Positions 4,657 through 60,320 of a DNA stretch of 64,000 nt are shown here, piece after piece; within the stretch, counting starts at the first letter, position 1, and each line of letters opens with the position of its first letter. A program made the position numbers and the translations under genes. The stretch lies in the NCBI GenBank assembly GCA_035651755.1, contig DASRFA010000050.1:40374-104373 (forward strand), written 5' to 3'. Source of the DNA: Candidatus Binatia bacterium (GTDB lineage Bacteria; Desulfobacterota; Binatia; UBA12015). The notes under the pieces were generated by a model. It saw nothing but the letters and a program-made list of their open reading frames with translations. It did not search any database and had not been told where the DNA came from.

Positions 4657-4715
4657 GCGCCGAGCCCCGCGGCTCGCGTGCGGTCGAGGTCATCCGCACG
4701 CGAGCCGCACGCGCG

Positions 4716-5504: not shown

Positions 5505-5570
5505 GGCCGAACCCTCCCTGTCTTAGCCCCACCGAACGCATAGCTTCGCGCATGGGTTAGCGCAATCGCC

Positions 5571-5593
5571 AAAAAAATACGGCTGGGCAGCCG
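5571..5593 (-). terminator. Putative intrinsic terminator downstream of the STAND regulator gene.
   Basis: On the minus strand, just after the stop at 5604, the RNA reads CGGCUGCCCAGCCG (5-bp stem, 4-nt loop) followed by UAUUUUUUU. Confidence 0.45.
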
Positions 5594-5603
5594 AGCGCTG
5601 GCT

Positions 5604-8600
5604 TCACGCCGATTCGGACGCGAAAGCGGCCGCCTCGCGTGCGATCGCGCCCATTCCGAGCTCGCGTGCGAGGTTCTCCGCGTCGCGCGCGGCATCGCGC
5701 GCGGCGGCCGGAACGGCCCGCCGGCGGCCCGTCCGCGACCGCGCGGCGAGCGTCCGGGCCTGATCGAGGCGCGTGATCGCGAGCCAGGGGAGGGCCCCCA
5801 TACGGTCGTGCTCCGCGCGCGCCCGCTCGAGGAGCGCGGCCGCTTCGTCCCATCGCCCGAGTGTCCGCGCGAGGAGGCCGAGAGGCCGGGTGCCGTGGCC
5901 GAGCGACGCGAGGTTCGGCCCGACGCCGATCACGCGCTCCGCGTACGGCCGGAAGAGCGCTTCGAGCGTCGCGGCCGCGCGCTCGTCAGCGAGGCCGGCG
6001 CACACCTCCGCGGCGGTCGCGATGCAGATGAGCCACACGGAATCGCGCGCGATCTGCCGGAAGCCCTCGGCCGCCAGCACGTCGAGGTCGGCGCGCGCGC
6101 CGGCGACGTCGCCCGACCGCAGCCGGACGAGGGCGAGCGTCGCGCGCGTCGAGTGCTGGTCCGGGCTCCGCTCGATCCAGGCGCTGGCCATCGTCGCCGC
6201 TTCCGCGAGCCGTCCTTCGAGGACGCGCAGCTGGAGCCGCTGGACGCCGAAGACCGGGAGGACGTTCGGGTGGTCCATGCGCCGCCCGAAGGCGGCGGCG
6301 CGCCCGATCAGCCGATCCGCCTCCGCGAGCCGGCCGTCCTGCGCCGCGCGCAGCGCCGCCAGGCGGAGCGCGAACCAGCAGAACCACGGGATCCCCGCTT
6401 CGTCCGCGAGCGCCTCGAAGTCGGCGAGCGCCTCGCCCGCCTCCGCGACGTCGCCGGCCTCGTGCAGGTCGGCGATGCGCAGCAGCTGCAGGTCGAGGGC
6501 TTGCTCCTTCGTCGTCGCGCGCCGCGCCAGCTCGCCGAGGTGGGCGGCCTCGGAGCGCAGCTCGTCGACCGCTTCCCGGCCCGAGAAGCCCCAGCGCGTG
6601 TAGCGAAGCACGCCGAGCAGGACGTCGGGGTCGTCGAGCCCGCGCGCGATCGCGATCGCGTCGCGGGCGAGCGGCTCGCGCCGCTCGTGTGCGCCGGCGA
6701 TCGGCGACAGCGCCGCGTCGAGCCGCGCGAGCAGCAGCGCGCGCAGCGCGACGTCGGCGGGCGGCACGCCGTCGAGCGCCTCCTCGAGGAGGGCGACCAG
6801 TTCTTCGTCGACGCGCGACACGACGTGATGCCCGCGACCCATCCCGAGCGCGGCCCGCGCGAACAGGTCGTGCGCTTCGGCGGCGCGCGCGAGCTCCGCG
6901 GCGCGCGCGAAGGTCGCGCGCGCGTCGCCGAGCGCGCCGCTCCGCTCTTCGGCCTCGCCGAGCGCCACGAGGACGCGGCAGCGCTCGCGCAGCGGCGCTT
7001 CCGGTGCGTGCGCGAGCGCCTCGAGCGCGAGCCGATAGTGCGCCGCCGCCTCGGCGTGCGCGTGCACGCGCTCGGCGCGCTCCGCCGCCTTCAGCGAGTG
7101 CGCGATCGCGCGCTCGACGCCCGCGGCGCCGGCGTCGAGGAAGTGGCGCGCGGTCTCCGCCGGGCTCGCGCCGATTCGCTCCTGCCATTCGCCGATCGCG
7201 CGGTGGAGCGCGGCGCGGCGCGACGGTCCGAGGCGTGCATGCAGCACCTCGCGGTGGAGCGCGTGCGCGAACGCGAACCGGCCGGACACCTCGCCATCGG
7301 GCAGCGCGGCGCTCCCGAGCGAGCGCAGGAACTGCCCGCGGCGCGCCTCGCCTTCGCACACCACCTCGACCTGCGCCGGCGGCGCGTCGAGCGCGGCCGC
7401 GACGGCCGCTGCGGCGAACTCGCCGCCAGCGACGCTCGCCGCCTCGAGCACGCGCGCGTCGTCCGCCGACAATCGCTCGAGCTGCTGCTCGATCATCTGC
7501 CGGAGTCCCTCCGGCACCTCGTCCCCGAGCTTCGCGCGCGACACGCGCCACGACGCCGCGCCGCCCACGGCGGTGAGCCAGCCGCGCTCGAGCATCTGGT
7601 CGACGAGGCTCACGACGAAGAGCGGGTTGCCGGCCGTGCGCTCGAGGACGGCTTCGGCCAGGCCCGCCGGCAGGTCGCGGACCCCGAGCCGGCGCTCGAG
7701 GTAGAGCGCGACGTGGCCGCGCTCGAGGAAAGGAAGGCACAGCTCGGCGGCGAGGCGCTGCATCTCGAGCCGATGCTTGACGACCTTCAAAGGATGCCCG
7801 GTGACGATCACGTCGACCGGGCGGTAGGTGCCGACGACCAGGAGGCGCGCCGGCGCCCGGCGATGCGCGAGCAGGGACAGCACGTCGACCGTCGACGGAT
7901 CGCTCCAGTGGAGGTCCTCGAGCGCGAGCACGAGCGCGCGGTCCCGGGTGAGCGCCTCGAGAGCCTCGGCGAGCTCGCGCAGCATGCGCTCGCGGGTCGT
8001 GCCTTGGAGCTCGCGCTGGAGCGTCTCGCGATCGCTCGCGGAGAGGAGCCACGGGAGCTGCGTGAGCCAGGTCGGCGCGACGCGGCGGAGCGCGTCCGTG
8101 ACCGGCTCCGCGTCCGGGCCGCGCGCGAGCTGGGCGAGCGCTTCGAGGATCGGGAGGTAGGCCTCGCCGCCGCCGTGGTGCTCGAGGCACTGGCCGCGCG
8201 CGACGAGCGCGCAGCCGGACGGGATCGCGGCGAGGAAGGCGTCGACCAGCGAGCTCTTGCCGATCCCGGCCTCGCCGCTGACGAACACGATCCGGCGCCG
8301 ACCCGCGCTCGCGGCGCGGAGCGCTTCGGCGAGCTGCGACAGCTCGCGCTCGCGGCCGATCGGCGCCTCCGCCGCCGCGATCGCTTCGATCGCCGCGGAC
8401 GCAGCCGGGGTCGCGAGCTCGCCCGCGCGCGGACGCTTCGCGCCGGGCGCGCCGTCGGCGCCCGCGGCGAGCGCGCCGCCGTCGCCGACCGCGTCCGCGC
8501 GCACCTCCGCGATGAAGCGGTACCCTCGGCGGTGCACGGTCTCGATGAAGCGCGGCGCCTCCGCCTCGTCCTGGAGCAGGGCGCGGATCTCGCGCACGCG

Positions 8601-8810
8601 GACCTTGAGGACGCCGTCCGCGACGTACGTGTCCGGCCAGATCGCTTCCAGGAGCTCGTCCTTCGTCACGAGGCGGCCGGCGTGCTCGACCAGGTAGTGG
8701 AGGACCGCGAAGCTCTTGGGCGGCATCGCCAGGCGGCGATCGCCGTGCCAGAGCGATTCGTCGCGTACGTCGAGGCGGTAGGGGCCGAAGGCGAGGCGCG
8801 GACCGCCCAC
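5604..8810 (-). CDS. Large signal-transducing ATPase. An N-terminal OmpR/PhoB-type winged-helix DNA-binding domain is followed by a STAND/AAA NTPase and TPR-like repeats (AfsR/MalT-like regulator).
   Basis: N-terminus ...LAMPPKSFAVLHYLVEHAGRLVTKDELLEAIWPD...RGYRFIA is a trans_reg_C domain. The Walker A motif is VFVSGEAGIGKSSLV, the hhhhD Walker B is LVLALEDLHWSD, and a long Ala/Leu-rich helical repeat region fills the C-terminus. 1068 aa. Confidence 0.85.
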   Translation of the reverse strand: MGGPRLAFGPYRLDVRDESLWHGDRRLAMPPKSFAVLHYLVEHAGRLVTKDELLEAIWPDTYVADGVLKVRVREIRALLQDEAEAPRFIETVHRRGYRFIAEVRADAVGDGGALAAGADGAPGAKRPRAGELATPAASAAIEAIAAAEAPIGRERELSQLAEALRAASAGRRRIVFVSGEAGIGKSSLVDAFLAAIPSGCALVARGQCLEHHGGGEAYLPILEALAQLARGPDAEPVTDALRRVAPTWLTQLPWLLSASDRETLQRELQGTTRERMLRELAEALEALTRDRALVLALEDLHWSDPSTVDVLSLLAHRRAPARLLVVGTYRPVDVIVTGHPLKVVKHRLEMQRLAAELCLPFLERGHVALYLERRLGVRDLPAGLAEAVLERTAGNPLFVVSLVDQMLERGWLTAVGGAASWRVSRAKLGDEVPEGLRQMIEQQLERLSADDARVLEAASVAGGEFAAAAVAAALDAPPAQVEVVCEGEARRGQFLRSLGSAALPDGEVSGRFAFAHALHREVLHARLGPSRRAALHRAIGEWQERIGASPAETARHFLDAGAAGVERAIAHSLKAAERAERVHAHAEAAAHYRLALEALAHAPEAPLRERCRVLVALGEAEERSGALGDARATFARAAELARAAEAHDLFARAALGMGRGHHVVSRVDEELVALLEEALDGVPPADVALRALLLARLDAALSPIAGAHERREPLARDAIAIARGLDDPDVLLGVLRYTRWGFSGREAVDELRSEAAHLGELARRATTKEQALDLQLLRIADLHEAGDVAEAGEALADFEALADEAGIPWFCWFALRLAALRAAQDGRLAEADRLIGRAAAFGRRMDHPNVLPVFGVQRLQLRVLEGRLAEAATMASAWIERSPDQHSTRATLALVRLRSGDVAGARADLDVLAAEGFRQIARDSVWLICIATAAEVCAGLADERAAATLEALFRPYAERVIGVGPNLASLGHGTRPLGLLARTLGRWDEAAALLERARAEHDRMGALPWLAITRLDQARTLAARSRTGRRRAVPAAARDAARDAENLARELGMGAIAREAAAFASESA

Positions 8811-8875
8811 GCCCGTCGTTCTACCGGGACCGTGAAAAGGCGTTCAACCCTTCCTGCCAACGCCGCCGGCCCGAT

Positions 8876-8906
8876 CGTCACCGAATCGTGACCGGGCCGT
8901 CATGAC
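8876..8906. promoter_or_regulatory. Palindromic motifs in the promoter region of the STAND regulator and small ORF: GTCACcgaatcGTGAC and GTCATGAC.
   Basis: Read directly from the sequence: 5-bp inverted arms with a 6-nt spacer, immediately followed by a perfect 8-bp palindrome that overlaps the ATG at 8902. Confidence 0.3.
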
Positions 8907-8970
8907 TCGCCGGGCGGGCTCGCCCTATCGACGGGGCGTGAGGACCAAGGCGAAGGACGGAAGGGCCGGG

Positions 8971-9165
8971 ATGCTGCCGCCCGAGGCGGCCTTCGTGCTG
9001 CAGCTGCAGTCCGGGGCCGCCATCGCGGGCGATCGGCTCGTCGGACGGGTCGAGCACGTGAAGTCGGGCCGGGCCGCGCGCTTTCGCTCGATCGACGAGC
9101 TGCTCGTGTTCATTCGAGGGACGCTCGCGTCGGCCGATCGGAAGCCGTCGCTCGACGATCCATGA
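8971..9165 (+). CDS. Small hypothetical protein of ~64 aa.
   Basis: Internal ATG of ORF 8902..9165 preceded by GGAAGG: MLPPEAAFVLQLQSGAAIAGDRLVGRVEHVKSGRAARFRSIDELLVFIRGTLA... The composition is protein-like. It ends 90 bp before the SDR start. Confidence 0.4.
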   Translation: MLPPEAAFVLQLQSGAAIAGDRLVGRVEHVKSGRAARFRSIDELLVFIRGTLASADRKPSLDDP

Positions 9166-9257
9166 GGGCGGCGTCCCGCGCTCGCGAGGCCGGCATCGTG
9201 CGCACGGCGACGCGCCGCGGATTCGCCGGTCGCCGCCCTCGTGCTACGAGCCGCCGC

Positions 9258-10028
9258 ATGGCCGGGCGCCTCGCGGGCAAGGTCGCGATCGTCACGGGCG
9301 CGAGCCGGGGCATCGGCCGCGCGATCGCGGAGCGCTTCGCGCGCGAGGGCGCGGCCGTCGTGCTGGTGGCGCGCACGGCGGAGCGGCTCGACGAGGTCGC
9401 GGCCGGCATCGCGCGCGACGGCGGCTCGGCCGCGGTGCTCGCGGGCGACGCCACGACCGAGGCCGTGAACGCGCGCATGGTCGAGCTCGCGGAGCGGCGC
9501 TTCGGCCGCGTGACGACCCTGGTCGCGAACATGGGCGCCGACTTGACGGCGACGGTCGCGGACACGACGCCGGCCGACTGGAACGCGTGCCTCGCGAGCG
9601 ACCTGAGCCATCTCCACCTCGGCGCGCGCGCCGCGCTGCCGTCGATGATCGCGGCCGGGGGCGGCGCGATCGTCGCGATCGCCTCGACGGCCGCGCTCCG
9701 GGGCATCCCGAATCACGCGGCTTACTGTGCCGCGAAGGCCGGGCTCGCGAGCCTCACGCGATCGATCGCAGTCGACTACGGGCGCCGCGGCGTGCGCGCG
9801 AACTGCATCTGCCCGGGCGCGATCGAGACCGAGATGCTGGCCGCGTGGCTTCGCAGCTTCGGCGACGCCGAGGCCGACGTGCGCGCCCGGCTTCTCGCGC
9901 GCTCGCCGCTCGATCGCATGGGGCGCGCCGACGAGATCGCGAGCGTCGCCTGCTTCCTCGCCTCGGACGAGGCGTCCTACGTGACCGGCGTGGTCATCCC
10001 GGTCGACGGGGGCACGAGCGCGGCTTGA
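9258..10028 (+). CDS. Short-chain dehydrogenase/reductase (SDR) family oxidoreductase.
   Basis: MAGRLAGKVAIVTGASRGIGRAIA (TGxxxGxG), NMG, and the catalytic YCAAK motif. Internal ATG of ORF 9162..10028. Confidence 0.9.
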   Translation: MAGRLAGKVAIVTGASRGIGRAIAERFAREGAAVVLVARTAERLDEVAAGIARDGGSAAVLAGDATTEAVNARMVELAERRFGRVTTLVANMGADLTATVADTTPADWNACLASDLSHLHLGARAALPSMIAAGGGAIVAIASTAALRGIPNHAAYCAAKAGLASLTRSIAVDYGRRGVRANCICPGAIETEMLAAWLRSFGDAEADVRARLLARSPLDRMGRADEIASVACFLASDEASYVTGVVIPVDGGTSAA

Positions 10029-10051: not shown

Positions 10052-11206
10052 TCACGGTCGCGGCAGGTGCGAAGCGTCGATCACGGCCTGCCAGATGTCG
10101 GAGCCGATGAAGATCCCGGAGACCCACGGCGGGTCGAGCACGACGTCGCTCGAGTACCAGGCGGTCGCGAAGCGGTGGTCGTCGATGGCGGCGACGCCGG
10201 CATACGAGGTGTCGCCCGCGCTCGGGACCTCGCCGTGCTCGAAGATGCCGATCGGCCCGCCGTCGAGCTCGCCCGTGATCTCGTAGAGCGCGGTGCGCTT
10301 GCGATTGTCGAGCCCGAGGTGCTTGCGCGCGATCACGAAGAGCCGCCCGCGCCACCAGAACGCGACCGGCCCGTCGAGCCGGACGCCCTCGAGCTCCTGC
10401 GGGCAGTCCCAGGCGTCGTACGGCGGCGTCGCCCAGCAGACCTTCGTCCGGAGCCGGCGGTTGCCGCTCAGCTCGGGGTCGGTGCCGTCCATGCGGACGA
10501 GGCCCAGCATCCGGCCCGATGGCACGACGACGAGCTCCGTCTCGAGCGGCGTGTCCTCCGACACGCCGTAGATCTCCGCGCCGCGCTCCCAGTGGAGCCC
10601 GTCCTGCGAGCGGAAGAGCACGACGCGCAGGTCGCCGTCCTCGTACGCCGCCGAGTAGAGCGTTCCGCCGGTCTCGGTCACGCGCCAGAACCCGAAGCGC
10701 ACCGGGCCGATGTCCGTCGGCATCGACCACGCGCGCCCGTCGTCCGAGTGCGTTTCGATCGAGATCGAGTCGACCGCCGTGTCGCGGAGGCCGATCCCGG
10801 GCAGGCGCGTGATCGCCTTGATGAAGAGCCGTCCGTCGCGCTGGTAGAACGACGGGTCTCGGATGTCGCGCCCGTTCACCGCGGGAATGATCGACTGCAG
10901 CTCGAACGACCGCCCGTCCTCGGAGCGGTACACGCGCAGCGAGCTGTTCGGCCCGAGCACCTGGCTGAGCGCGGTGCGGTGGACGAGCCAGATCGCGCCG
11001 TCGAAGCGCGTCATGTCGCAGTTCTCGTTGTGGCGGCAGACGCCGGTCCGGCAATCGTCGTTCGCGACGCCGACGCCGGGAACGAGGATCGCGGCGTTCT
11101 CGAGGAACGCGCCGTCGGGCGCCGGCGCGTCGGAGCAGCCGACGAGCGCGGCGAGCGCGCCTGCGGCAACGGCCGCGCAGAGACGGTCGCGGCGAAGCTC
11201 TCTCAT
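10052..11206 (-). CDS. Lipoprotein, β-propeller (BNR/sialidase-like) fold, hypothetical.
   Basis: MRELRRDRLCAAVAAGALAALVGCSD has a lipobox, and the rest of the sequence is rich in W/D/G β-strand character. Internal ATG of ORF 10052..11248. Confidence 0.7.
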   Translation of the reverse strand: MRELRRDRLCAAVAAGALAALVGCSDAPAPDGAFLENAAILVPGVGVANDDCRTGVCRHNENCDMTRFDGAIWLVHRTALSQVLGPNSSLRVYRSEDGRSFELQSIIPAVNGRDIRDPSFYQRDGRLFIKAITRLPGIGLRDTAVDSISIETHSDDGRAWSMPTDIGPVRFGFWRVTETGGTLYSAAYEDGDLRVVLFRSQDGLHWERGAEIYGVSEDTPLETELVVVPSGRMLGLVRMDGTDPELSGNRRLRTKVCWATPPYDAWDCPQELEGVRLDGPVAFWWRGRLFVIARKHLGLDNRKRTALYEITGELDGGPIGIFEHGEVPSAGDTSYAGVAAIDDHRFATAWYSSDVVLDPPWVSGIFIGSDIWQAVIDASHLPRP

Positions 11207-11240
11207 GGGGCAACCTCGTGTGGGCCGGCCTTGTCGGCTG

Positions 11241-12644
11241 TCAAGCAACTGCGGGCGGGATCGCGACCCGGTGGTCGGGGTGGGCGCGCTCGAGCGCGAA
11301 CGCGATCCGGAGCGCGCGCCCGTCCTCGCCCGTCGGCGCGATCACCTGGATCGCGAGCGGGAGCCCTTCGCTCGATCCGGCGGGAAGCGAGACGGCGGGG
11401 AAACCGACCAGGTTCGCGGCGCCCGTGTACGGAACGGCGCGCGGGGTGAGCGCGAGCTCTTCCTGGTCGATGCGCGGCGCCTTGAATGGAGAGACCGGCG
11501 ACACGATCGCGTCGACCTCGCAGAACGCCTCGGCGTAGCCGCGCGCGATCCGCTGGCGATCGCGCTGCATGTCGATCCAGAGCCCGGGGTCCGGCTCGAG
11601 CGAGCGCGAGCGGATCATCTCCACCTGCGGGCTGAAGCGCTTCGGGCGGTCGCCGATCAGGCGGTCGGTGAGCGTGCCGCCCTCGATGCCGAACACGCCC
11701 ATCACGCCGCGCAGCACGAGCGACTGGCTCGGCAGCGCGATCTGCACGATGCGCGCGCCGAGGTCGGCGAGGCGGCGCACCGTGGCCTCGTAGGCGGCGC
11801 GCACGTCGGGGTCGGGCTCGGGCACGAGGAGGTCGTCGCTGACGCCGATCCGGAGCCCTTCGACGCCGCGCTCGAGCTCGCCGAGGAGATCGGGCACGGG
11901 GTGGGGAAGCGAGTACAGGTACGCGGGGTCGAAGCCCGCGAGGAGCTGCGAGGCGAGCGCAGCGTCGCGGACGCTCCGCACCAGAGGTCCCGGCACGGAG
12001 AACGACGTGCCCTCGCCGCCGAACTGGCCGCGGATGCTCAGGAGCCCGAGCGTCGGCTTGTGCCCGACGACGCCGCAGAACGCGGCCGGGAAGCGGATCG
12101 ACCCGCCGCCGTCCGTTCCGACGTGGAGCGGGCCCATGAGCGCCGCCGCGGCGGCGCTCGCGCCGCCGCTCGACCCGCCCGGGACGTGGTCGCGGTTCCA
12201 CGGGTTCCGCGTCGCGCCGAAGAAGAAGTTGTTCGTCGTCAGGCCGAGGCCGAGCTCGTGAGTCGCCGTCTTGCCGGTCACGATCGCGCCGAGAGCCTTC
12301 AGGCGCTCGGGCATGCCGCCGTCGCTCGCGGGGACATGGTCGGCGAACATGCCGCTCCCGTACGTCGTCCGGAGGCCGGCGGTGTCGATCAGGTCCTTGA
12401 CGCTCGCGGGGATGCCGTGGAGCGGTCCGAGGTAGCGACCGTGCGCGATCTCGTCGGCGGCGCGGCGCGCGGCCTGCATGACCTGATCGCGCGGGACGAG
12501 GGTCGTGAAGGCGTTGAGCTCCGGGTTCAGGCGCTCGATCTGGTCGTAGACCGCGCTCGCGAGGTCGACCGGGGAGAGGTCGCCGCGCCGCACTCGATCG
12601 GCGGCCTCGGCGAGCGAAAGGCGAAGCAGCTCGACGTTCGGCAT
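11241..12644 (-). CDS. Amidase (amidase-signature family).
   Basis: MPNVELLRLSLAEAADRV...GGSSGGASAAAAALMGPLHVGTDGGGSIRFPAAFCG is the AS signature. 467 aa. The upstream 1000 aa of ORF 11241..15674 is R-rich antisense to the next gene and was rejected. Confidence 0.9.
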   Translation of the reverse strand: MPNVELLRLSLAEAADRVRRGDLSPVDLASAVYDQIERLNPELNAFTTLVPRDQVMQAARRAADEIAHGRYLGPLHGIPASVKDLIDTAGLRTTYGSGMFADHVPASDGGMPERLKALGAIVTGKTATHELGLGLTTNNFFFGATRNPWNRDHVPGGSSGGASAAAAALMGPLHVGTDGGGSIRFPAAFCGVVGHKPTLGLLSIRGQFGGEGTSFSVPGPLVRSVRDAALASQLLAGFDPAYLYSLPHPVPDLLGELERGVEGLRIGVSDDLLVPEPDPDVRAAYEATVRRLADLGARIVQIALPSQSLVLRGVMGVFGIEGGTLTDRLIGDRPKRFSPQVEMIRSRSLEPDPGLWIDMQRDRQRIARGYAEAFCEVDAIVSPVSPFKAPRIDQEELALTPRAVPYTGAANLVGFPAVSLPAGSSEGLPLAIQVIAPTGEDGRALRIAFALERAHPDHRVAIPPAVA

Positions 12645-12675
12645 GCGCGCCCGTTCTAGTACGGGCGCGCATGCC
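12640..12675. promoter_or_regulatory. Perfect inverted repeat GGCATGCGCGCCCG-N8-CGGGCGCGCATGCC that overlaps the amidase start codon.
   Basis: The 14-bp arms, extendable to about 16, are read from the sequence. They lie in the 53-bp gap between the stop of the upstream gene at 12698 and the amidase ATG at 12642-12644, which sits inside one arm. Confidence 0.6.
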
Positions 12676-12697
12676 GAGACCAGACGTCCCGATGCGC

Positions 12698-15600
12698 CTA
12701 CTTGTCCTTCCCCGACTTGCCGTGCTTGTCGGAAGCGTTCGCCTCGACGGCCACCTCGCGCAGCGCGGTCGGGAGGCAGAGGCGGTGCGAGAAGAAGAGG
12801 AACGGCTTGATCGTCCCGAAGCGCTCGTCGAGCGTGAGCGAGACCGGCCGCAGCGGCGTCGGTGCGCCCGAGCGCCACTCGTCGTAGGTCGCGTAGCAGA
12901 CGAGGTGGGCGAGCGGCTGCTCGACCGGCCCGCCGTCGACCGACGTCGGGTTGCACAGCATCGTCGGCCGGCCGACGCTGACGCGCGCCTTGCCGAAGCG
13001 GTCGCGGAGCTCGACGGACCGGCGCGCCGGGTCGGGGTCGCCGTATGGGACGTGAGCGGCATAGCAGGTGTAGTCGTCGAGCAGCGTCGACGGCTGGCCG
13101 CCATGCTCGTTGACGCGAAGGCAAAGCTCGCGCGCGCTGCCGACCGACAGCTGCTGCACGCCGAGCGCGTTCTTCACCACGGCGCGCCGCTTCGGGTCGG
13201 GCGCGGTCGACGAGCTCGTGCGCGCCGGATCGACGTCGTGGCAGGCCATGAGCTCGGGCAGCGCGTCGTCGTCGGTGGTGAGGAGCGACGTGTTGGCGGT
13301 CGCGCACACCTCGGTCGGACGCATCAGCCAGTAGCTCGCGGACGCGAACTCGTCCGAGAGCGCGACCTGGCGCGCGCGCCAGCGAAGCGCGTCGAGCCAG
13401 CTCAGCTCGGAGTGGTAGCAGCGCGACGGGTCGAGGCAGGCGCTCGGCTCGACGTCGCCGGGCTGGCAAACGCCGGACAGGCAGAGGTCGCCGACGGTGC
13501 ACGCCTCGCCGTCGTCGCAGGCGGTTCCGTCGGGGGCGTCGACCATCGAGCACGACCCAGTCGCCGGCTCGCAGGCGCCGGCCGTGCGGCACGCGTCCTG
13601 GGAGACCGGGCACACGACCGGGTTCGAGCCGACGCAGGCGCCGGCACCGTCGCACGCGTCGGTCCGCGTGCAGCGGTCGCCGTCGTCGCAGGCGGTACCG
13701 GCCGGTGCGTTCGCCGAGGAGCACGTGCCGGTCGCGGGATCGCACGCGCCCGCGCTGCGGCACGCCTCGTCCGACTCGGGGCACACGACCGGGTTCGAGC
13801 CGACGCAGGCGCCCGCGCCGTCGCAGACATCGGTCTGGGTGCAGAGGTCGCCGTCGTCGCAAGGCGTTCCCGCCGGAGCGTCGACGGTGGGGCAAGTGCC
13901 GGTCGCCGGATCGCACGCGCCCCCGGCGCGGCACGCATCGTCGCCGTCGGGACAGACGACCGGGTTCGAGCCGACGCAGGCGCCGGCGCCGTCGCAGGCG
14001 TCGGTCCGGGTGCACAGGTCGCCGTCGTCGCATGCGGTTCCGGCGGGAGCGTCCACCACGGGGCAGGTGCCGGTCGCGGGATCGCACGCGCCGGCGGTGC
14101 GGCACGCGTCGTCCGACTCGGGGCACACGATCGGGTTCGCGCCGACGCAGCTGCCGCTGCCGTCGCACGCGTCGCTCTGCGTGCAGAGGTCGTCGTCGGA
14201 GCACGCGCTGCCTGCGGTCTCGAAGCCGCACTCGGCGTCGCAGCAGTCGCCGTCGTCGAGGTTGGAATCGTCGCACGACTCGTGGACGTTCAGCACGCCG
14301 TTGCCGCAGTCGTTCGTGTTGACGAACACGTCCTGTGCGGCGTTCCCGTCTCCGGCGACGAGGTTCGACGCCGAGCTGGCGAACGCGACCGCACGTCCGT
14401 CGGCGGTGAGGGTCGCCCACAAGGTCGCTCCGCCGTCGCCCTCGTCCCCGGCGGACGAGACGCTCGCGCGCCGCGTGCTGCCGTGCCGGCGATCGCGCAC
14501 GAACACGTCGTTCACGAAGTTGACGTCGGAAGCGGCGAGATTGGTCGACGCGGACGTGAACGCCACGAACCGGCCGTCGGCGGAGAGCGACGGCGGGTCG
14601 GTGAAGCCGCTCTGGCCGTTCCCCTCGCTGCCGTCGCTCGCGACGCTCGCGCGCTCGGTGACGCCGGTCTGCAGGTCGCGGACGAAGACGTCCGTCCGGC
14701 CGTTGCCGTCGCCGGCGACGAGGTTGTTGGCGTCGCTCACGAACGCAGCGAAGCGACCGTCGGCCGACAGCGTGCCGGCGAGGCTCTGCTGGTTCCCCTG
14801 CGAGCCGTCGGACGCGACGCTCGCGCGCACGGTCACGCCGCTCGCGCGGTCGCGGACGAACACGTCGGCGACGGCGTTCGTGTCGCCGGCGACGAGGTTC
14901 GACGCGAAGCTGTGGAACACGACGCGGCTGCCGTCGCCCGACAGGCGTGGAGTGACGCTCGAGCCGTTGCTTTCGGCGCCGGAGCTCGAGACGCTCACGC
15001 GCTCGATCGCGCCGGTCGTGAGGTCGCGCACGAAGACGTCGAAGGTCGCATTGGTGTCGCCCGGCACGAGATTCGACGAGAGGCTCGCGAAGGCGACGAA
15101 GCGGCCGTCGCCGGAGAGCGCGGGCTGGAAGCTGTCGCCCGTTCCGTCGCCGCCGGTCATCGACGTGCTGGCGCGGACGGTCGTGCCCGTGACGAGGTCG
15201 CGGACGAAGACGTCGAAGAAGTTCGACGACTTGCCCGGGACGAGGTTCCGGGCTCGGCTCGCGAACGCGACCAGGCGCCCGTCGGCGGACACCGAAGGCG
15301 TCATGCTGGTGCCGTTCGCGGGCAGCCCTCCGGGCGCGACGCTCGCGAGGATCGTGGAGCCGGTGCTGCGATCGCGCACGAAGACGTCGGAGACGGCATT
15401 CGTGTCGCCCGCAACCAGGTTCGAGGCGACGCTGGCGTAGGCCACGATCCGCCCGTCGCTCGAGATCGACGACGCCGTGCTGAACGAGTTCGCCTCCGTG
15501 CCGCTGGACGCGATGCTCACGCGCTCCGTCGCCGCGTCGGCGGCCGGCACGGCGAAGACGGTCACCTCGGCCGCCAGGAGAGCGACGGCGAGCGCCAGGA

Positions 15601-15718
15601 CTGCGCCGAGTGCGCGGGCGCTCGCGGGGGCGAGGGAACCAGCGACCGCGGTGGCGCTGCGGCCGAGCGGGCAATGCGACTTTGCGGTCGACGGTTTCAC
15701 GCCGGGCACCCGGAGCAA
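12698..15718 (-). CDS. Giant secreted protein with N-terminal PD40/TolB-like β-propeller repeats, about five 'Myxococcus cysteine-rich' disulfide repeats and a C-terminal Cys-containing domain.
   Basis: About eight repeats of ...SSDGRFVAFASxASNLVAGDTNAVxDVFVRD..., then repeated CDDGDLCTxTDACDGAGACVGSNPVVCPxxDxACRxAGACDPATGTCP units, and a hydrophobic N-terminal segment. 1006 aa. The exact start is uncertain. Confidence 0.85.
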   Translation of the reverse strand: MLRVPGVKPSTAKSHCPLGRSATAVAGSLAPASARALGAVLALAVALLAAEVTVFAVPAADAATERVSIASSGTEANSFSTASSISSDGRIVAYASVASNLVAGDTNAVSDVFVRDRSTGSTILASVAPGGLPANGTSMTPSVSADGRLVAFASRARNLVPGKSSNFFDVFVRDLVTGTTVRASTSMTGGDGTGDSFQPALSGDGRFVAFASLSSNLVPGDTNATFDVFVRDLTTGAIERVSVSSSGAESNGSSVTPRLSGDGSRVVFHSFASNLVAGDTNAVADVFVRDRASGVTVRASVASDGSQGNQQSLAGTLSADGRFAAFVSDANNLVAGDGNGRTDVFVRDLQTGVTERASVASDGSEGNGQSGFTDPPSLSADGRFVAFTSASTNLAASDVNFVNDVFVRDRRHGSTRRASVSSAGDEGDGGATLWATLTADGRAVAFASSASNLVAGDGNAAQDVFVNTNDCGNGVLNVHESCDDSNLDDGDCCDAECGFETAGSACSDDDLCTQSDACDGSGSCVGANPIVCPESDDACRTAGACDPATGTCPVVDAPAGTACDDGDLCTRTDACDGAGACVGSNPVVCPDGDDACRAGGACDPATGTCPTVDAPAGTPCDDGDLCTQTDVCDGAGACVGSNPVVCPESDEACRSAGACDPATGTCSSANAPAGTACDDGDRCTRTDACDGAGACVGSNPVVCPVSQDACRTAGACEPATGSCSMVDAPDGTACDDGEACTVGDLCLSGVCQPGDVEPSACLDPSRCYHSELSWLDALRWRARQVALSDEFASASYWLMRPTEVCATANTSLLTTDDDALPELMACHDVDPARTSSSTAPDPKRRAVVKNALGVQQLSVGSARELCLRVNEHGGQPSTLLDDYTCYAAHVPYGDPDPARRSVELRDRFGKARVSVGRPTMLCNPTSVDGGPVEQPLAHLVCYATYDEWRSGAPTPLRPVSLTLDERFGTIKPFLFFSHRLCLPTALREVAVEANASDKHGKSGKDK
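13500..14200. repeat. Tandem DNA repeats of about 120 bp that encode the cysteine-rich repeat units of the 12698..15718 protein.
   Basis: Periodicity is visible in both the sense translation (five near-identical ~40-aa units) and the antisense ORF (SHAPA(L/V)RHASSDSGHTTGFEPTQAPAPSxxSV repeated). Confidence 0.6.
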
Positions 15719-15987
15719 AGGCGGGACCGCTCGGCGCTGCGCCGACGCCTACGGCTCGGCGCCGGAGGTCGCCCGCTCGCCTGCGCGGTGGCGACGCGAC
15801 GCGCCGACGGACCGGGCCGCGAACGCGGCGTGTCGCGGAAATCTCCTCGGATTTCCGGCGAACGAGCGCTCGCAGCGCGTTGCGGCATCGACGCTCCGGC
15901 GTCGCATTCTCGACGGTGCGGCACGGGGTCGTCGTCGCCGCCGCGCCGGCGTGCTACCCCTCAGGTGCCATCCGAGCGCAGAGTGCC

Positions 15988-16866
15988 GTGAGCGATCCGG
16001 AAGCGAGCGCCCCATCCCGTGCGCCGGGACCGCGAGCCTTGCGCGCCACCGCAGGCCCGGTGACGCTCGTCCTCACCGCGATCGGCGGCCCCTCGGCGAT
16101 CCGCGGCAAGCTCCTCCGGCTCGCGCGGACGCTGCGACTCTGGACGGACGCGGCCGAGATCGACCGCCGGCTCCGGACGCTGGAGCGGAAGGGCTACGTC
16201 TCGCGCCGGCCCACGCGTTGGCAAATTCTGTTCGGCGGCGTCGACATGCTGCGGTTCGTGATCGAGCCGGCGGCGCGCGACTACTACCGCCAGAAGGGCA
16301 TCTCGTTCGGCTTTCACCAGCTGCTGCGCGTCCTCGACGACCCGGTCTCGATGGTCGATCCGACCGGCTTCCTCTCCGATCGCGACACGATCGTCGGCCA
16401 CGTCATGCAGGTCGTTCACCTGAACCCGGTCTACGACCTGCAGCTCATCCAGATGTTCGAGGACGGCCTCGAGGACTTCGAGCGCCAGGTTGCGGCGATG
16501 GTCGACGGGACGCACCCGCGCCATCGCACGATCGCCGCGATCGTCGAGGACCCGGGCTACCACGCGCGCCTCCTCGATTACGTGCGCCGCTTCCGAGCCG
16601 ACCCCGGAGCCGCGCCCCCGGTACGCGAGGAGCAGACGCTGCGCTCGGATCCCTCCTTCGCGGCCGCCGAGCGGACGTTCGCATCGCTGCCCGGCTTCAT
16701 CGAGTACTGCAACCGGCTGCCCGCGCGTCCGAGCGAGCTTCTCCTGCGCTGGCGGCGCCTCCGGGAGTTCCCGCTCGAGCTCGAGGTGCGCCCGACCGCC
16801 GACCGCGCGGCGGCGCGCTCCGGGCACGGAGACGGGCTGGGCGAATCGCTGAGTTCGACCGGCTAG
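15988..16866 (+). CDS. Hypothetical protein of ~292 aa with no recognised domain.
   Basis: Only the C-terminal two-thirds of ORF 15610..16866 is protein-like (LRLWTDAAEIDRRLRTLERKGYVSRRPTRWQILFGGVDMLRFVIEPAARDYYRQKGISFGFHQLL...). A GTG at 15988 was chosen as the start and is uncertain. Confidence 0.5.
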   Translation: MSDPEASAPSRAPGPRALRATAGPVTLVLTAIGGPSAIRGKLLRLARTLRLWTDAAEIDRRLRTLERKGYVSRRPTRWQILFGGVDMLRFVIEPAARDYYRQKGISFGFHQLLRVLDDPVSMVDPTGFLSDRDTIVGHVMQVVHLNPVYDLQLIQMFEDGLEDFERQVAAMVDGTHPRHRTIAAIVEDPGYHARLLDYVRRFRADPGAAPPVREEQTLRSDPSFAAAERTFASLPGFIEYCNRLPARPSELLLRWRRLREFPLELEVRPTADRAAARSGHGDGLGESLSSTG

Positions 16867-16884
16867 CCGGAACGCCGGCTTCGC

Positions 16885-17289
16885 TCACGCGGTCGCGCGA
16901 CGGCCCTCCCGGAGCGCCGCGTCGACGCTCCAGACGCCGGAGCCGCGCGACGCGATGTAGAGGAAGACCCAGGCGTACACGACCGCGAGCTCGCCGCGGT
17001 TCTGGATCGGGAGAGGCGTCTCCATGCGGTGGTGGGCGAGGAAGTACGCGAACGCCATGAGGCCGCTCGCGAGAAAGGCGGCCCAGCTCGCCGCGAGCCC
17101 GACCGCGATCAGGATGCCGCCAACGAGCTCGATCGGCCCGGCAATCCAGCGGATGCCGGGCGGGATGTCGGCCATGCCGCCGAAGAAGCCGAGCAGCTTC
17201 TGCGCCCCGTGACAGGCAAAGAGAAACCCCACCACGATCCGCAAGAGAGCGTACGTTTCCTCCGAGTAGCGCCCGAGCACTCGCTCCAT
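16885..17289 (-). CDS. DoxX family membrane protein.
   Basis: 134 aa with four hydrophobic helices: MERVLGRYSEETYALLRIVVGFLFACHGAQKLLGFFGG... Confidence 0.85.
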   Translation of the reverse strand: MERVLGRYSEETYALLRIVVGFLFACHGAQKLLGFFGGMADIPPGIRWIAGPIELVGGILIAVGLAASWAAFLASGLMAFAYFLAHHRMETPLPIQNRGELAVVYAWVFLYIASRGSGVWSVDAALREGRRATA

Positions 17290-17397
17290 CGAGCACCTCC
17301 CGCAGCCGCCCTATCACCCCGCAGGTTTTGCGTCACACCAGGATCGGGCGGGCGGCTGCTAAAGCGACGCAGCATCGCCGGCCGATAACGAAAAAGA

Positions 17398-19299
17398 ATG
17401 AGCCTGGGCACCGACATGCCGTGCCCGCCAGTCACCCCGTCCGGCGCCGGGCCGGGCGCCGGTTCCTTCTATCGCGGCCGGGTCCGGTGGTTCCTCCTGG
17501 TCACCTGCCTGGGGTGGATCTCGTTCGCCGTCCAGAACGCGCCACAGGGACGGTGGATCGCGAGCGCGATCAACCTGGTCGCGGCCGGCTCGACGTTCGC
17601 GCTGTGGCGCTGGGTCCGGGCCTCGGAAGACGACCGCCGAGCCCGCATCGCTTCGCACGCGGCGCTCGCCGTGTCCTCCCTCGGGATCACGGGGATCGCG
17701 CTCACGAGCGGGCAGTCCGAGTCGATGTCGGTCTGGTACCTCGCGGCGATCCCGATGTTCGCGGCGCACCTCCTGAGCGCCGGCGCGGCCGCGGCGTGGT
17801 CCGGGATCGCGATCGCGGCCATGGCGCTCGTGCACCTGAGCGAGCTCTTCGTCACGATCCCGCCCGAGTACACCGCCGTCGGCACGGAGCTGCTGGTCGC
17901 GCGCGCTCTGTTCGTCCTGGTCCTGCTCGGGTTCGCGCTCGCGTCGTGGCGGCTCACGGCGCGCCACGTGACGGCGCTCGAGGAGCGCGAGCGGACGATC
18001 TCCCACCAGGCGCGCGAGCTGACGGTCGCGCGCGACGAGGCGCTCGAGGCGTCGCGCGTCAAGAGCGAATTCCTTGGCCGGATGAGCCACGAGCTCCGGA
18101 CGCCCATGCACGGCGTGATCGGCATGACCGGGCTCCTTCTCGAGACGCGGCTCGACGACGCGCAGCGCGAGTTCGCCGAGACCGTCCATCGCTCGGGCGA
18201 GACTCTGCTCGCGATCGTGGACGACATCCTCGACTTCGCGGAGATCGAGGCCGGTCGCATCGAGCTCGAGACGCGCCGGTTCGAGCCGGTGCAGGTGACG
18301 CGCGAGGCGGTCGCGTTCTTCCAGCAGCGTGCCGAGCAGAAGGGAATCGCGGTTCGGCTCCACGTCGAGCCGGGCGTGCCGGACGAGGTGGAGGGCGACC
18401 GCCGGCGCCTGCGACAGCTGCTGATGATTCTCGTCGGCAACGCCGTCAAGTTCACGGGCGAGGGCGGCATCGACGTGCGCCTCGCGCCGCTGTCCGACGC
18501 GCCATGCGGGCTCCGCTGCACGGTGACGGACACCGGGATCGGGATCGATACGGAGCATCGCGCGCGCGTCTTCGAGGCCTTCTCGCAGGTCGACGGGTCG
18601 ATGACCCGCCGACACGGCGGCACCGGGCTCGGGCTCGCGCTCGCGAGCCGGCTCGTCGCGCTGATGGGCGGCGAGATCGGCGTCGAGAGCGAGCCCGGGA
18701 GGGGGAGCTCGTTCTGGTTCACGGCCCGCCTCGGGCAGTCGCCGGCGCCGGAAGCGGCTCGCGAGGCGGCGGACAGCGCTCGCCCGGCGCGTGCTCCCGC
18801 GGCCTCGGAGCCCGAGCGCGCGGCGCCGCCTCCCATGCCCGATCCGGCAGCCGCGCGCGCTCGCGATCGCGCCGTCCATCCCCTGCGGCGCGGTCGGATC
18901 CTCGTCGCGGACGACAACGACATCAACCAGCGCGTCGCGGTGCGGATGCTCGAGCGCCTGGGCTTCGCCGTCGACGTCGCGGGCGACGGCCGGGAAGCCG
19001 TCCAGGCGGTCCAGGTCTCGAGCTACGACCTCGTCCTCATGGATTGCCAGATGCCCGAGATGGACGGGCTCGCGGCCACGGCGGAGATCCGGCGCGCGGA
19101 GAACGGCGTCCGCCACACGCCGATCGTCGCGATGACGGCCAACGTCGCGCCCGGCGACCGCGAGCGCTGCATCGCGGCCGGGATGGACGCGTTCCTCGCG
19201 AAGCCCGTGAAGCGCGATGCGCTCGCCGCGGTGCTCGCGCGCTTCGTGAGCGCGCAGGACGGGGCGGGCTCGCCGCCGGCGGGGTCATCCGCCGCCTAG
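17398..19299 (+). CDS. Hybrid sensor histidine kinase/response regulator: membrane sensor, HisKA, HATPase_c and a C-terminal receiver domain.
   Basis: N-terminal TM segments; the H-box SEFLGRMSHELRTPMHGVIG; the G1/G2 boxes DTGIGI and GGTGLGLALA; and the receiver motifs ILVADDNDINQ ... DLVLMDCQMPEMDG ... AKP. Confidence 0.9.
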   Translation: MSLGTDMPCPPVTPSGAGPGAGSFYRGRVRWFLLVTCLGWISFAVQNAPQGRWIASAINLVAAGSTFALWRWVRASEDDRRARIASHAALAVSSLGITGIALTSGQSESMSVWYLAAIPMFAAHLLSAGAAAAWSGIAIAAMALVHLSELFVTIPPEYTAVGTELLVARALFVLVLLGFALASWRLTARHVTALEERERTISHQARELTVARDEALEASRVKSEFLGRMSHELRTPMHGVIGMTGLLLETRLDDAQREFAETVHRSGETLLAIVDDILDFAEIEAGRIELETRRFEPVQVTREAVAFFQQRAEQKGIAVRLHVEPGVPDEVEGDRRRLRQLLMILVGNAVKFTGEGGIDVRLAPLSDAPCGLRCTVTDTGIGIDTEHRARVFEAFSQVDGSMTRRHGGTGLGLALASRLVALMGGEIGVESEPGRGSSFWFTARLGQSPAPEAAREAADSARPARAPAASEPERAAPPPMPDPAAARARDRAVHPLRRGRILVADDNDINQRVAVRMLERLGFAVDVAGDGREAVQAVQVSSYDLVLMDCQMPEMDGLAATAEIRRAENGVRHTPIVAMTANVAPGDRERCIAAGMDAFLAKPVKRDALAAVLARFVSAQDGAGSPPAGSSAA

Positions 19300-22713: not shown

Positions 22714-22727
22714 CCGACGATCTCGCG

Positions 22728-22754
22728 CGAACGGCCGCGGTGCGCGGCCGTTCG
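22728..22754. terminator. GC-rich hairpin between convergent genes: CGAACGGCCGCG-GTG-CGCGGCCGTTCG.
   Basis: A 12-bp perfect stem with a 3-nt loop, 15 bp after the Big_2 stop, with no U-tract. The next minus-strand gene stops at 22789. Confidence 0.45.
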
Positions 22755-22788
22755 CGGCAGCGAGCGGTGCGCCGCGCGGCGTGCGCGG

Positions 22789-23817: not shown

Positions 23818-23974
23818 CGAAGAAAGATGTTGTGCGGCGGGGAGCGGTCAGTCAACCGACGGTTCGCAGGCATCTCGGCGGGATGGTGCGTTGTGGATCG
23901 TCGTTACGACCAAGCGCCGGTACGGGCAACGCGGTCCCCGCGCCGAGGAGGAAGCTGATGATTGAGGAGCTTGC

Positions 23975-24696
23975 CTAGTGTGATCGGGGTGGGGTTGGCG
24001 TCTTCCGAACCCGTCGACTAGCGCCAGCGATCGCTGCAAGAGCAATTCGGTCCTCGACGAGCGCCGCCACGCTGGCTGGATACTCGTGGTGGAATGCCTC
24101 GAAGCTGACGCCGATTCCGGGCACAGCGAAGAGGCGTCTGGCAAGTGGTAGGAACTCATTGCCCAGCCCGACCGGTCTGACCACCGTTCGGTGCCTGTCC
24201 GCGAGGAAGCAGCCCGCCAGGTAGTCAGGCAGGAGCAGCAGAGGCTCTTGCGCCTCGGCCTTGAATGAAATCGATTCGACGCGCAGCCCGAATCCCTGGT
24301 TCTTGAACGAGCTATCCCGCATTGCGACGAGCGCCCGCCACTGCTCCCGATAGATCTCTACATTCGTGTCGCCCTGAAGATCACTGTCGTTCACCAAGTT
24401 GGCATAGATCGGTGTCCACTTCGATCGCGCGCCCGATCGAGCTGGCGCCGCGGAGCGCGTCAATGACCCGCTCGAAGGATTCAACAGTCGCGTGCTTCCA
24501 CTTTGGAAGCCCGACGAGACGTGATCGCGTTGACAACTCGTGCGTCAAGCACAGCTTGCGTGATTTGTATTGGCTGCATGTCGGGGGCCGTCGCGAATTC
24601 GCCGCAGCGGAGCGCTGGCACGGCGCAGTGCTGTCGCGCCGCTGACCGGAGCAGGTGGTCCGTCGTGACCGCGTCGATCGCGCGACGCGACGTCAC
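23975..24696 (-). pseudogene. Low-GC gene remnant made of two adjacent out-of-frame ORFs (23975..24484 and 24481..24696), probably a degraded acquired gene.
   Basis: GC in about 23990-24330 falls to the high 50s. The translated fragment ...VEIYREQWRALVAMRDSSFKNQGFGLRVESISFKAEAQEPLLLLPDYLAGCFLAD... is protein-like but lacks a credible N-terminus, and the upstream ORF abuts it in another frame. Confidence 0.35.
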
Positions 24697-59939: not shown

Positions 59940-60195
59940 GGTCGTCTCGCCGTCTACGGAGGCCGTCGCAGCGGCTCCGAGGGCAGCGGCCGCGTTACAG
60001 CGCAGAGCGTGCGCGCTGTCAATGCGCGCGGCCGGCTCGCGGGCGCACGTCGGCGCACGCGCGCGGCACGACGCGCGAGCGCCGACGTGCGGCAACCCGC
60101 TCGCACGCGACACGCGGAGCCGCAGGTTCGAGCGGAAGCTTCGGCGCCCCGCTTGCGGCTTCCTGCGCGCGGCGCACTGCGCTCGGCGACAAGCC

Positions 60196-60235
60196 GAAAA
60201 AACTGCGTCCGAATCGCAGCTTCCGCGGTTTTTTC
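60196..60235. other. Hairpin with flanking A-run/T-run in a 380-bp divergent intergenic region: GAAAAAAC-CTGCG-tccgaat-CGCAG-...-GTTTTTTC.
   Basis: Read from the sequence. On the minus strand it looks like CUGCG-AUUCGGA-CGCAG-UUUUUU, i.e. terminator-like. No annotated gene ends here. Confidence 0.35.
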
Positions 60236-60320
60236 CTCCAGTTGCGGGCGCCGCTCGCCGATCTCTCGGATGTCGGCGAGGCGAGCCTCGCCTGCCGACC
60301 GCGCGAAAGGAGACGGAAAC

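Follow-up and report, generated by a model that had tools for sequence, protein, structure and literature searches.

A perfect 17-bp hairpin over the start of an amidase gene in a Candidatus Binatia genome: a candidate 3'-end element of the upstream gene placed on a putative leaderless promoter

A hairpin that covers a start codon is easily read as a translational switch, and the question raised by this locus is whether such a hairpin serves the gene whose start it covers or the gene that ends just ahead of it. The locus lies in a stretch of 64 kb (the window, i.e., the whole DNA analysed here) of a genome with a GC content of 72.6%. The earlier note had described a perfect palindrome between a giant gene and an amidase gene, with the amidase AUG inside one arm; we confirmed both its sequence and the 53-nt gap between the two genes (12645-12697). 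The flanking genes are both on the minus strand, on which codon-position GC and Pfam agree, and two plus-strand ORFs (10863..12659 and 12671..15991) were rejected as flanking genes on these same grounds.

~12698..15709, minus strand: upstream gene for a giant PD40/Cys-rich protein of ~1003 aa, stop codon TAG at 12700-12698
11241..12644, minus strand: gene of the amidase-signature family, 467 aa, ATG at 12644-12642 (Pfam PF01425, E value 2e-102)

The upstream gene appears in the ORF list as 12698..15718 with a TTG start and is matched by an independent gene call at 6936-9947 of the source contig (L001). Translation and Pfam give its product a signal-peptide-like N terminus, PD40 repeats (3.5e-14), Cys-rich repeats, and a DUF7450-like C terminus (7e-5). 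An identical amidase protein is present on a Candidatus Binatia MAG. Support for the ATG of the amidase comes from an independent gene call and from the orthologues, which are 465 to 472 aa long; the closest of them have four residues ahead of a conserved ELL.

On the plus strand, the hairpin (12638-12677) reads TCGGCATGCGCGCCCGT-tctagt-ACGGGCGCGCATGCCGA, in which 17 pairs without a mismatch enclose a loop of 6 nt; the core noted before (14 bp, 8-nt loop) is its inner part. A repeat search rates it as a 40-bp palindrome with 95% complementarity. It starts 20 nt past the stop codon of the giant gene, and the amidase AUG does lie inside one arm, the 3' arm in mRNA sense.

12661..12677, minus strand: 5' arm in mRNA sense (UCGGCAUGCGCGCCCGU), also 17 nt of the proposed 18-nt -35/-10 spacer
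12655..12660, minus strand: loop ACUAGA, 6 nt, the middle of the conserved box GTACTAGA (12662-12655)
12638..12654, minus strand: 3' arm (ACGGGCGCGCAUGCCGA), the proposed discriminator, the amidase ATG (12644-12642), and the 4 coding nt after it
12684..12688, minus strand: 5' side of an outer 5-bp stem (GACGU), paired with 12637-12633 across a 6-nt bulge in MFE structures
12633..12637, minus strand: 3' side of the outer stem (ACGUC), within amidase codons 3 to 5, also from MFE structures

The palindrome is real and far beyond chance. The 40-mer has a folding energy of -38.0 kcal/mol, and the outer stem stacks on the main one; the region from -50 to +12 reaches -41.9 kcal/mol (z = -6.0), a stability equalled by none of 300 shuffles. 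When the whole 64-kb window was shuffled 200 times with dinucleotides preserved, the longest perfect stem ranged from 10 to 16 bp and never reached 17.

At the 3' end of the giant gene, the stem is not followed by a U-tract (the 3' flank is ACGUCGAGCUGCUUCG), and a terminator consensus scan of 11000-17500 made no call at 12638-12677; the hairpin is not a canonical L-shaped intrinsic terminator. It does have the form of an I-shaped or U-lacking 3'-end hairpin, i.e., a stable GC-rich stem-loop less than ~50 nt past the stop codon and without a U-tract. The absence of a U-tract had been pointed out before and stands, but in this genome it does not mean that a hairpin is no terminator, as the two next-longest perfect hairpins of the window lack U-tracts too and lie between convergent gene ends.

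4669-4708, between convergent genes: perfect hairpin without a U-tract
22726-22756, between convergent genes: perfect hairpin without a U-tract

For hairpins between convergent genes, the obvious role is one at the 3' end. All three of the longest (17, 15, and 14 bp) are intergenic and lie 12 to 20 nt past a stop codon, and their sequences are mutually unrelated. Compared with coding controls, 8 of 40 gene 3' ends are followed by a hairpin that ranks no higher than the 5th percentile (2 expected), and the gene ends that equal or undercut the lowest of 150 coding controls (5/40) correspond to the three hairpin sites. Similar hairpins thus recur at other gene ends within the 64-kb window, at only ~3 of the 40.

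Hairpins of this form have been described elsewhere. In Streptomyces clavuligerus, with 72% GC, U-lacking and strongly structured transcript 3' ends are more numerous than U-rich ones (353 versus 182; PMC8269248), and "I-shaped" terminators at 50 bp or less from stop codons have been described in mycobacteria (PMC12288462). The hairpin resembles the I-shaped terminators and the HS-U-lack TEPs of S. clavuligerus in its GC-rich perfect stem less than 50 nt past the stop and in the missing U-tract (PMC12288462, PMC8269248), but differs from them in that it overlaps the promoter and start codon of the next gene instead of free spacer, and termination by it is putative. Whether hairpins without a U-tract terminate alone is contested, as Czyz et al. 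2014 found the U-tract to be required, according to the passage of PMC12288462 that cites them. The hairpin may only protect a 3' end generated by Rho.

For the amidase side of the element, we compared conservation at eight orthologous amidase loci (64 to 78% identity) and folding in ten orthologous upstream regions. None of these ten regions conserves the hairpin arms or folds better than its shuffles, and a conserved RNA structure was rejected on this basis; the stems of 5 to 8 bp around the box at loci L111, L112, and L032 are not significant against shuffles either. The box GTACTAGA, present as a single exact copy in the 64 kb, is kept in six of the eight orthologous upstream regions and has variants in the other two. 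The hexamer TAGA(A/G)N precedes the ATG by 6 to 12 nt in 7/8 orthologues (as TAGAGT, at 7 to 12 nt, in L112, L119, L032, and L033), and L111 has TATGGA or TACTAT. The upstream neighbours differ among the eight loci, and the position of the box does not depend on them: at L111, a divergent gene, 79% identical to the window gene 16039-16866, begins 34 nt upstream, and the box is retained.

12653..12658, minus strand: proposed -10 hexamer TAGAAC, 8 nt ahead of the amidase ATG
12677..12682, minus strand: weak -35-like hexamer TGGTCT, 18 nt upstream of TAGAAC, in the column block CT(T/G)G of alignment A1

Leaderless-mRNA promoters, known from Actinobacteria and Deinococcus, carry a -10 element TANNNT ~6 to 8 nt ahead of the start codon. 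The amidase loci resemble them in the TA-box found 6 to 9 nt ahead of the ATG in most orthologues, in the lack of a Shine-Dalgarno sequence (GGAGG-type sequences are present in many neighbouring genes), in very short divergent intergenic regions, and in the occurrence of the same pattern at other genes on the contigs. A regulator gene in the window is preceded by TTGAAC-18-TAGAAC-7-GTG, with the same hexamer as the amidase, and among 43 non-amidase genes on Binatia contigs, 7 have a TA-starting hexamer 6 to 7 nt ahead of the start codon, where 1.3 were expected. Unlike in the leaderless promoters, TAGAAC does not end in the final T, which is usually invariant in -10 hexamers (four orthologues have it, as TAGAGT), and the -35 is weak; the aligned -35-like position reads TTGCCC in L032 and L033 and TGGCTC in L114. 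A sigma-70 consensus scan of 11000-17500 found no canonical promoter match at the hairpin site, and we know of no experimental promoter data from Binatia. Read this way, the loop most likely serves as the -10 element in an amidase promoter of the (near-)leaderless type. Since the arms are not conserved and the box in the loop keeps a fixed, short spacing to the ATG, the amidase most likely makes a separate, (near-)leaderless transcript, with a putative start site downstream of the 5' arm, and sequestration of the AUG would then be possible only on RNA reading through from the giant gene.

The explanation that we prefer, and to which we give about an even chance, is that the hairpin is a U-tract-less terminator and/or a block to 3' exonucleases for the giant gene, built onto the amidase promoter. 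It would be a lineage-specific, GC-rich RNA element of the 3' end of the giant gene, placed over the promoter because there are only 53 nt between the genes. The conserved -10 box (TAGAAC within GTACTAGAAC) would form the loop; the 5' arm would be the -35/-10 spacer, unconstrained in sequence, and the 3' arm the discriminator with the start codon. RNA from the amidase promoter would start at most ~2 nt from the AUG, i.e., leaderless, and would for this reason lack the 5' arm and be translatable, while read-through RNA would carry both arms and so have the amidase AUG locked in a hairpin of ~-38 kcal/mol. The net result would be that amidase expression is insulated from the giant gene. The view in the earlier note that the AUG is base-paired in the mRNA would thus apply wherever both arms are transcribed and probably not to the amidase's own transcript. 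In favour of a 3'-end role, the giant gene at locus L113 (described below) has a hairpin past its stop as well. Points against it are that the stop of L120, a 54% relative of the C-terminal region of the giant protein, is not followed by a strong hairpin, that such hairpins stand at only ~3 of the 40 gene ends, that the genome also carries at least one canonical terminator, a hairpin followed by T7, and that the promoter hexamers depart from the sigma-70 consensus as described above. More tentatively, the 40-nt element could have a triple role, as terminator or 3'-end hairpin of the giant gene, as leaderless core promoter, and as a lock on read-through translation, in which case the leaderless RNA would be the sole source of the amidase. 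As a rarer extension of this possibility, supercoil-driven cruciform extrusion of the palindrome would modulate the promoter itself.

If the hairpin served the amidase instead, it could control translation on a bicistronic mRNA, with the AUG closed until temperature, a protein, or RNase III cleavage opens the stem. Hairpins that sequester start codons are known from RNA thermometers and from the replicase operator of phage MS2, and here too the AUG and the nucleotides upstream of it (the preceding 10 nt) are paired within the 17-bp stem (-38 kcal/mol). Together with the outer stem it makes a helix of 22 bp, near the size of an RNase III substrate, and the genes are in tandem, 53 nt apart, an adjacency found also at locus L113, where a 73% amidase orthologue likewise follows a PD40 giant gene of 57% identity. 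At L113, however, a 15-bp sense-strand hairpin with G.U pairs lies 32 nt past the giant-gene stop and leaves the ATG untouched, followed by a separate promoter, TTGACT-17-GAGAAG. The arms are missing from all orthologues but the promoter-like box is kept even where no co-directional gene lies upstream, internal initiation would lack a Shine-Dalgarno sequence, and the stem is far more stable than in the known cases, too stable for a plausible thermometer, unconserved, and probably missing from the amidase's own transcript. We regard translational control as unlikely. Rather unlikely, too, is that the stem has no selected function and persists after an imperfect inverted repeat was perfected by quasipalindrome template switching, a process that can produce perfect palindromes in one step and without selection. 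The perfect arms, absent from even the nearest orthologues (78%), do suggest a young, lineage-specific origin. In alignment A1, the 3' arm shares 7 of 8 discriminator positions with the 78% orthologue L114, and the 5' arm matches it at 8 of 17 positions and differs at 9, as expected had one arm been copied from the other; complementary flanks of 5 to 8 bp, as around the box in several orthologues, could seed such an event. Such an origin would still leave a function possible, and the hairpin has the same position after a stop codon as the two other outliers of the window. A stem as stable as this over a promoter and a start codon should carry a cost, unless it is tolerated or of use.

The remaining alternatives concern the palindrome as DNA. 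A dimeric repressor could bind it over the spacer, the -10 box, and the amidase transcription start, and the centre of the dyad does fall exactly on the -10 box, with the promoter core inside the dyad, a classical position for a repressor. Operators centred on CTAG exist, e.g., the TrpR boxes, to which the GTACTAG core has a resemblance only; a TrpR operator was considered and dropped, as there is a single CTAG and no TrpR-type regulator tied to the locus. The protein operator proposed before nevertheless looks improbable: every orthologue has different arms, the half-site is not repeated within the 64 kb, GC-only arms of 17 bp far exceed the usual half-sites, and no small regulator gene is adjacent. 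The nearby regulator is of the OmpR type (Trans_reg_C), whose domains as a rule bind direct repeats. As for a REP-like or mobile-element-derived dispersed palindrome, the hairpin is, like REP and BIME elements, an intergenic, GC-rich, perfect palindrome past a stop codon that may stabilise the upstream mRNA, and an unrelated MAG labelled "Chlamydiia" (CAWDOQ01) has at least 13 copies of a repeat with the same 12-nt stem core. Unlike those elements, it has no family consensus and is present once in the 64-kb window, where a search for further copies of the arm, allowing up to 2 mismatches, gave 7 matches against 8.0 expected, in agreement with the view that it is not a repeated element. The other strong hairpins are unrelated in sequence, and the loop and 3' arm are homologous to the orthologous promoter sequence, which argues that they were not inserted; we consider a dispersed repeat very improbable. 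A scan of contigs from other genomes for the 12-nt stem core with a loop of 2 to 14 nt gave 28 loci, none with the loop or flanks of the window and consisting of scattered singletons and the one multi-copy element of the "Chlamydiia" MAG. Rfam 15 gave no match at gathering score in the whole window, and the chance matches at the hairpin were two miRNA models with 18 to 20 bits, against gathering scores of 70 to 90.

With the U-lacking 3'-end hairpin as the preferred reading, the element is most likely compact gene punctuation, an ordinary signal unusually packed and not a new kind of switch. Binatia are uncultured, and to our knowledge, nothing is known experimentally of their gene punctuation. 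This locus, its sister hairpins, and the TA-box pattern provide a testable picture of it, in which U-less hairpins stand at the ends of some genes, many genes seem to be leaderless, and a very short spacer can hold both signals, one on top of the other. The lesson for annotation is that hairpins covering start codons are not necessarily translational switches: such a hairpin may be part of the gene upstream, and the gene downstream may have a transcript that lacks it. Elsewhere in the window, a 12-bp stem at 681-710 lies inside a coding region and is not intergenic.

The palindrome described in the earlier note is really present, as a reading of the window sequence confirms: at 12638-12677, + strand, it runs TCGGCATGCGCGCCCGT tctagt ACGGGCGCGCATGCCGA. 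The 14-bp core with an 8-nt loop reported there can be found, but it is just the inner portion of a stem of 17 perfect pairs closed by a 6-nt loop, and the repeat search enters the same interval as a 40-bp palindrome with 95% complementarity. The window has a G+C content of 72.6%, and in 200 dinucleotide-preserving shuffles, with loops of 3-12 nt allowed, the longest perfect stem was 10-16 bp and 17 bp was never reached. The folding energy of the 40-mer is -38.0 kcal/mol. For positions -50 to +12 relative to the amidase start codon the value is -41.9 kcal/mol (z = -6.0; 0/300 shuffles equally stable). Across a 6-nt bulge, 12688-12684 pairs with 12637-12633 to give an extra 5-bp helix stacked on the main one. 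At the hairpin, a 53-nt spacer separates the giant gene from the amidase gene (arms, starts, and stops are in mRNA sense unless the + strand is stated).

Genes around the hairpin.
~15709..12698, minus strand: giant gene, product of ~1003 aa, stop codon TAG at 12700-12698
12644..11241, minus strand: amidase, 467 aa (PF01425, E 2e-102)
10052-11206, minus strand: gene downstream of the amidase, 384 aa
16039-16866, plus strand: gene beyond the giant gene, 275 aa

The giant protein has a signal-peptide-like N terminus, PD40 repeats, Cys-rich repeats, and a DUF7450-like C terminus, and neither the 384-aa nor the 275-aa product has a Pfam match. The hairpin begins 20 nt past the giant-gene stop codon, and the amidase AUG (12644-12642) does lie inside one arm, namely, the 3' arm. 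This start codon agrees with an independent gene call and is also backed by the lengths of the orthologues (465-472 aa), the closest of which start four residues ahead of a conserved ELL. The source is a metagenome contig, and NCBI assigns an identical protein to a Candidatus Binatia MAG.

We give about an even chance to the reading in which the palindrome combines a terminator or 3'-end hairpin with a leaderless promoter. The hairpin would be the 3'-end element of the giant gene, either a terminator without a U-tract or a block to 3' exonucleases after Rho termination, and the shortness of the spacer (53 nt) would have placed it on top of the amidase promoter. Transcripts from that promoter would begin beside the AUG, lack the 5' arm, and be read as leaderless mRNA; in read-through RNA both arms would be present and the amidase AUG sequestered. 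The sequestration proposed earlier would therefore survive for read-through transcripts only and fail for the amidase's own RNA. The element would belong to a kind already known, the U-less GC hairpin at gene ends of high-GC bacteria, here packed unusually tightly together with a leaderless promoter.

The three longest perfect hairpins of the window are the 17-bp stem at the amidase site and the two listed here. All are intergenic and start 12-20 nt past a stop codon, their sequences are unrelated to each other, and none is followed by a U-tract.

Other long hairpins in the window.
4669-4708: 15-bp stem, 10-nt loop, GC-rich, between convergent genes, 12 nt past a stop codon
22726-22756: 14-bp stem, 3-nt loop, GC-rich, between convergent genes, 12 nt past a stop codon

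These two are probably bidirectional 3'-end elements. Among 40 gene 3' ends, the downstream 50-nt fold did not exceed the 5th percentile of coding controls in 8 (2 expected) and did not exceed the control minimum in 5, which correspond to the three longest-hairpin sites. Such hairpins occur at just ~3 sites in 64 kb. The genome also seems to use U-tract terminators, as a canonical-looking one lies at ~5570-5600 on the minus strand, just past the stop of a regulator gene (1068 aa, Trans_reg_C and AAA_16), with a short GGCUG/CAGCC stem and then UAUUUUUUU (hairpin+T7). In Streptomyces clavuligerus (72% GC), highly structured transcript 3' ends lacking U outnumber U-rich ones (353 versus 182) and were interpreted as I-shaped terminators or as RNA ends made by Rho and then protected (PMC8269248). 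A review (PMC12288462) covers I-shaped terminators of mycobacteria, lying no more than 50 bp from stop codons, and also cites a dissenting result, that the U-tract is required. At locus L113, an amidase orthologue (73%) likewise follows a PD40 giant gene (57% identical). The two are 116 nt apart, with a 15-bp hairpin 32 nt past the giant-gene stop whose G.U pairs form in the sense RNA only; a separate putative promoter, TTGACT-17-GAGAAG, comes after it, and the amidase ATG is clear of the stem. No strong 3' hairpin follows the 54% relative of the giant protein's C-terminal region at locus L120.

Clear GGAGG-type Shine-Dalgarno sequences precede many genes of these contigs, and none precedes the amidase. 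Among 43 non-amidase genes of related contigs with independent start calls, hexamers starting with TA show a sharp peak at 6-7 nt upstream of the start codon (7 genes, 1.3 expected from other offsets). Directly upstream of the regulator gene (8808-8847, minus strand) stands TTGAAC-18-TAGAAC-7-GTG, which suggests a leaderless transcript; its -10-like hexamer is identical to that in the amidase loop. Further window genes show TTGACC-TAGCTT-5-GTG and TATGAT-7-ATG. On these grounds, we read TAGAAC (12658-12653) as the putative amidase -10 element and TGGTCT (12682-12677) as a weak candidate -35, with transcription predicted to start within ~2 nt of the AUG. TAGAAC is without the usual final T of a -10, and a simple consensus scan found no promoter at the amidase site.

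Amidase orthologues at 60-78% identity are many, and upstream DNA was compared for eleven loci. The strong hairpin was found in the window alone, as none of the 10 other upstream regions folds better than its own shuffles. Conservation covers the loop and not the arms, with a box at a fixed place common to eight loci (alignment A1, of the amidase upstream regions).

Conserved box upstream of orthologous amidases.
Window: GTACTAGAA, 9 nt to ATG
L114: GTACTAGAA
L112, L119, L032: GTACTAGAG
L033: ATACTAGAG
L116: TGGTAGAAA
L111: GTACTATGG

The common core, TAGA(A/G)N, is preceded at 18 nt by a T(T/G)G motif and stops 6-12 nt short of the ATG, with 8 nt in the window and 7 nt in L114, L116, and L112. 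The upstream neighbour of the amidase varies. In L111 a divergent gene starts just 34 nt before the amidase ATG, and in L032 and L033 a divergent ORF starts ~55 nt upstream; such short distances leave hardly any reading of the box other than a core promoter, with a leader of a few nucleotides at most. The L111 divergent gene is 79% identical to the 275-aa gene at 16039-16866, which, unlike its orthologue, is placed beyond the giant gene, so the giant gene sits within a pair that is adjacent elsewhere. In A1, the window matches its 78% orthologue at 7/8 discriminator positions (promoter-to-ATG block, 3' arm region) and at just 8/17 positions of the 5' arm, the stretch serving as spacer of the proposed promoter. 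This fits a history in which pairing with one arm shaped the other, within sequence on which a promoter makes no demands. L114, the 78% relative, also has a long inverted repeat upstream of its amidase promoter (~20-125; arms of ~26 nt, GGCGGTAGCGGTGGACTTTGCCCGCC / GGCGGGCAAAGGCCACCGCTACCGCC).

The observation in the earlier note is confirmed, and its interpretation is backed in part only, since the loop rather than the arms is conserved. Control of a bicistronic mRNA at translation or by RNase III is unlikely in our estimate, and a repressor operator somewhat more so. That the stem is an unselected product of template switching is doubtful, although quasipalindrome template switching may make a perfect palindrome in one step, and perfection alone is thus no proof of selection.

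A REP-like element is very improbable, as the arm has no second copy in 64 kb and allowing ≤2 mismatches gives 7 hits against 8.0 expected. Neither the hairpin nor the whole window has an Rfam match. A one-genome-per-species scan with the 12-nt stem core and any loop of 2-14 nt returned 28 loci, none with the window's loop or flanks: unrelated single hairpins of assorted high-GC genomes and a multicopy nested-hairpin repeat in one MAG labelled Chlamydiia (CAWDOQ01). That GC-rich repeat (~85 nt, cgcgcccgcttccgcgcccgCATGCGCGCCCG...loop...CGGGCGCGCATGcgggcgcggaagcgggcgcg) has at least 13 copies (L003, L004, L007, L009, L011, L013-L015, L020, L023, L025, L026, L029) in surrounding DNA of ~48% GC, and its loop occurs in either orientation; it resembles a family of the REP or MITE type and has no relation to the window hairpin.

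Elsewhere in this otherwise 72% GC window, AT-rich islands cluster at 23958-24571, where no gene is called with confidence. ARAGORN calls a 95-nt tRNA-Ala (cgc) at 57336-57430 on the minus strand, but Rfam at gathering scores gave no tRNA anywhere in the window; the call is probably false or the gene unusual. A ~320-nt non-coding stretch (60000-60320), with no Rfam match, precedes a signal-peptide gene (ATG 60322, good Shine-Dalgarno sequence). Within the stretch are an imperfect hairpin of 20 bp (60044-60091) and A6/T6 runs in inverted orientation (60196-60235).
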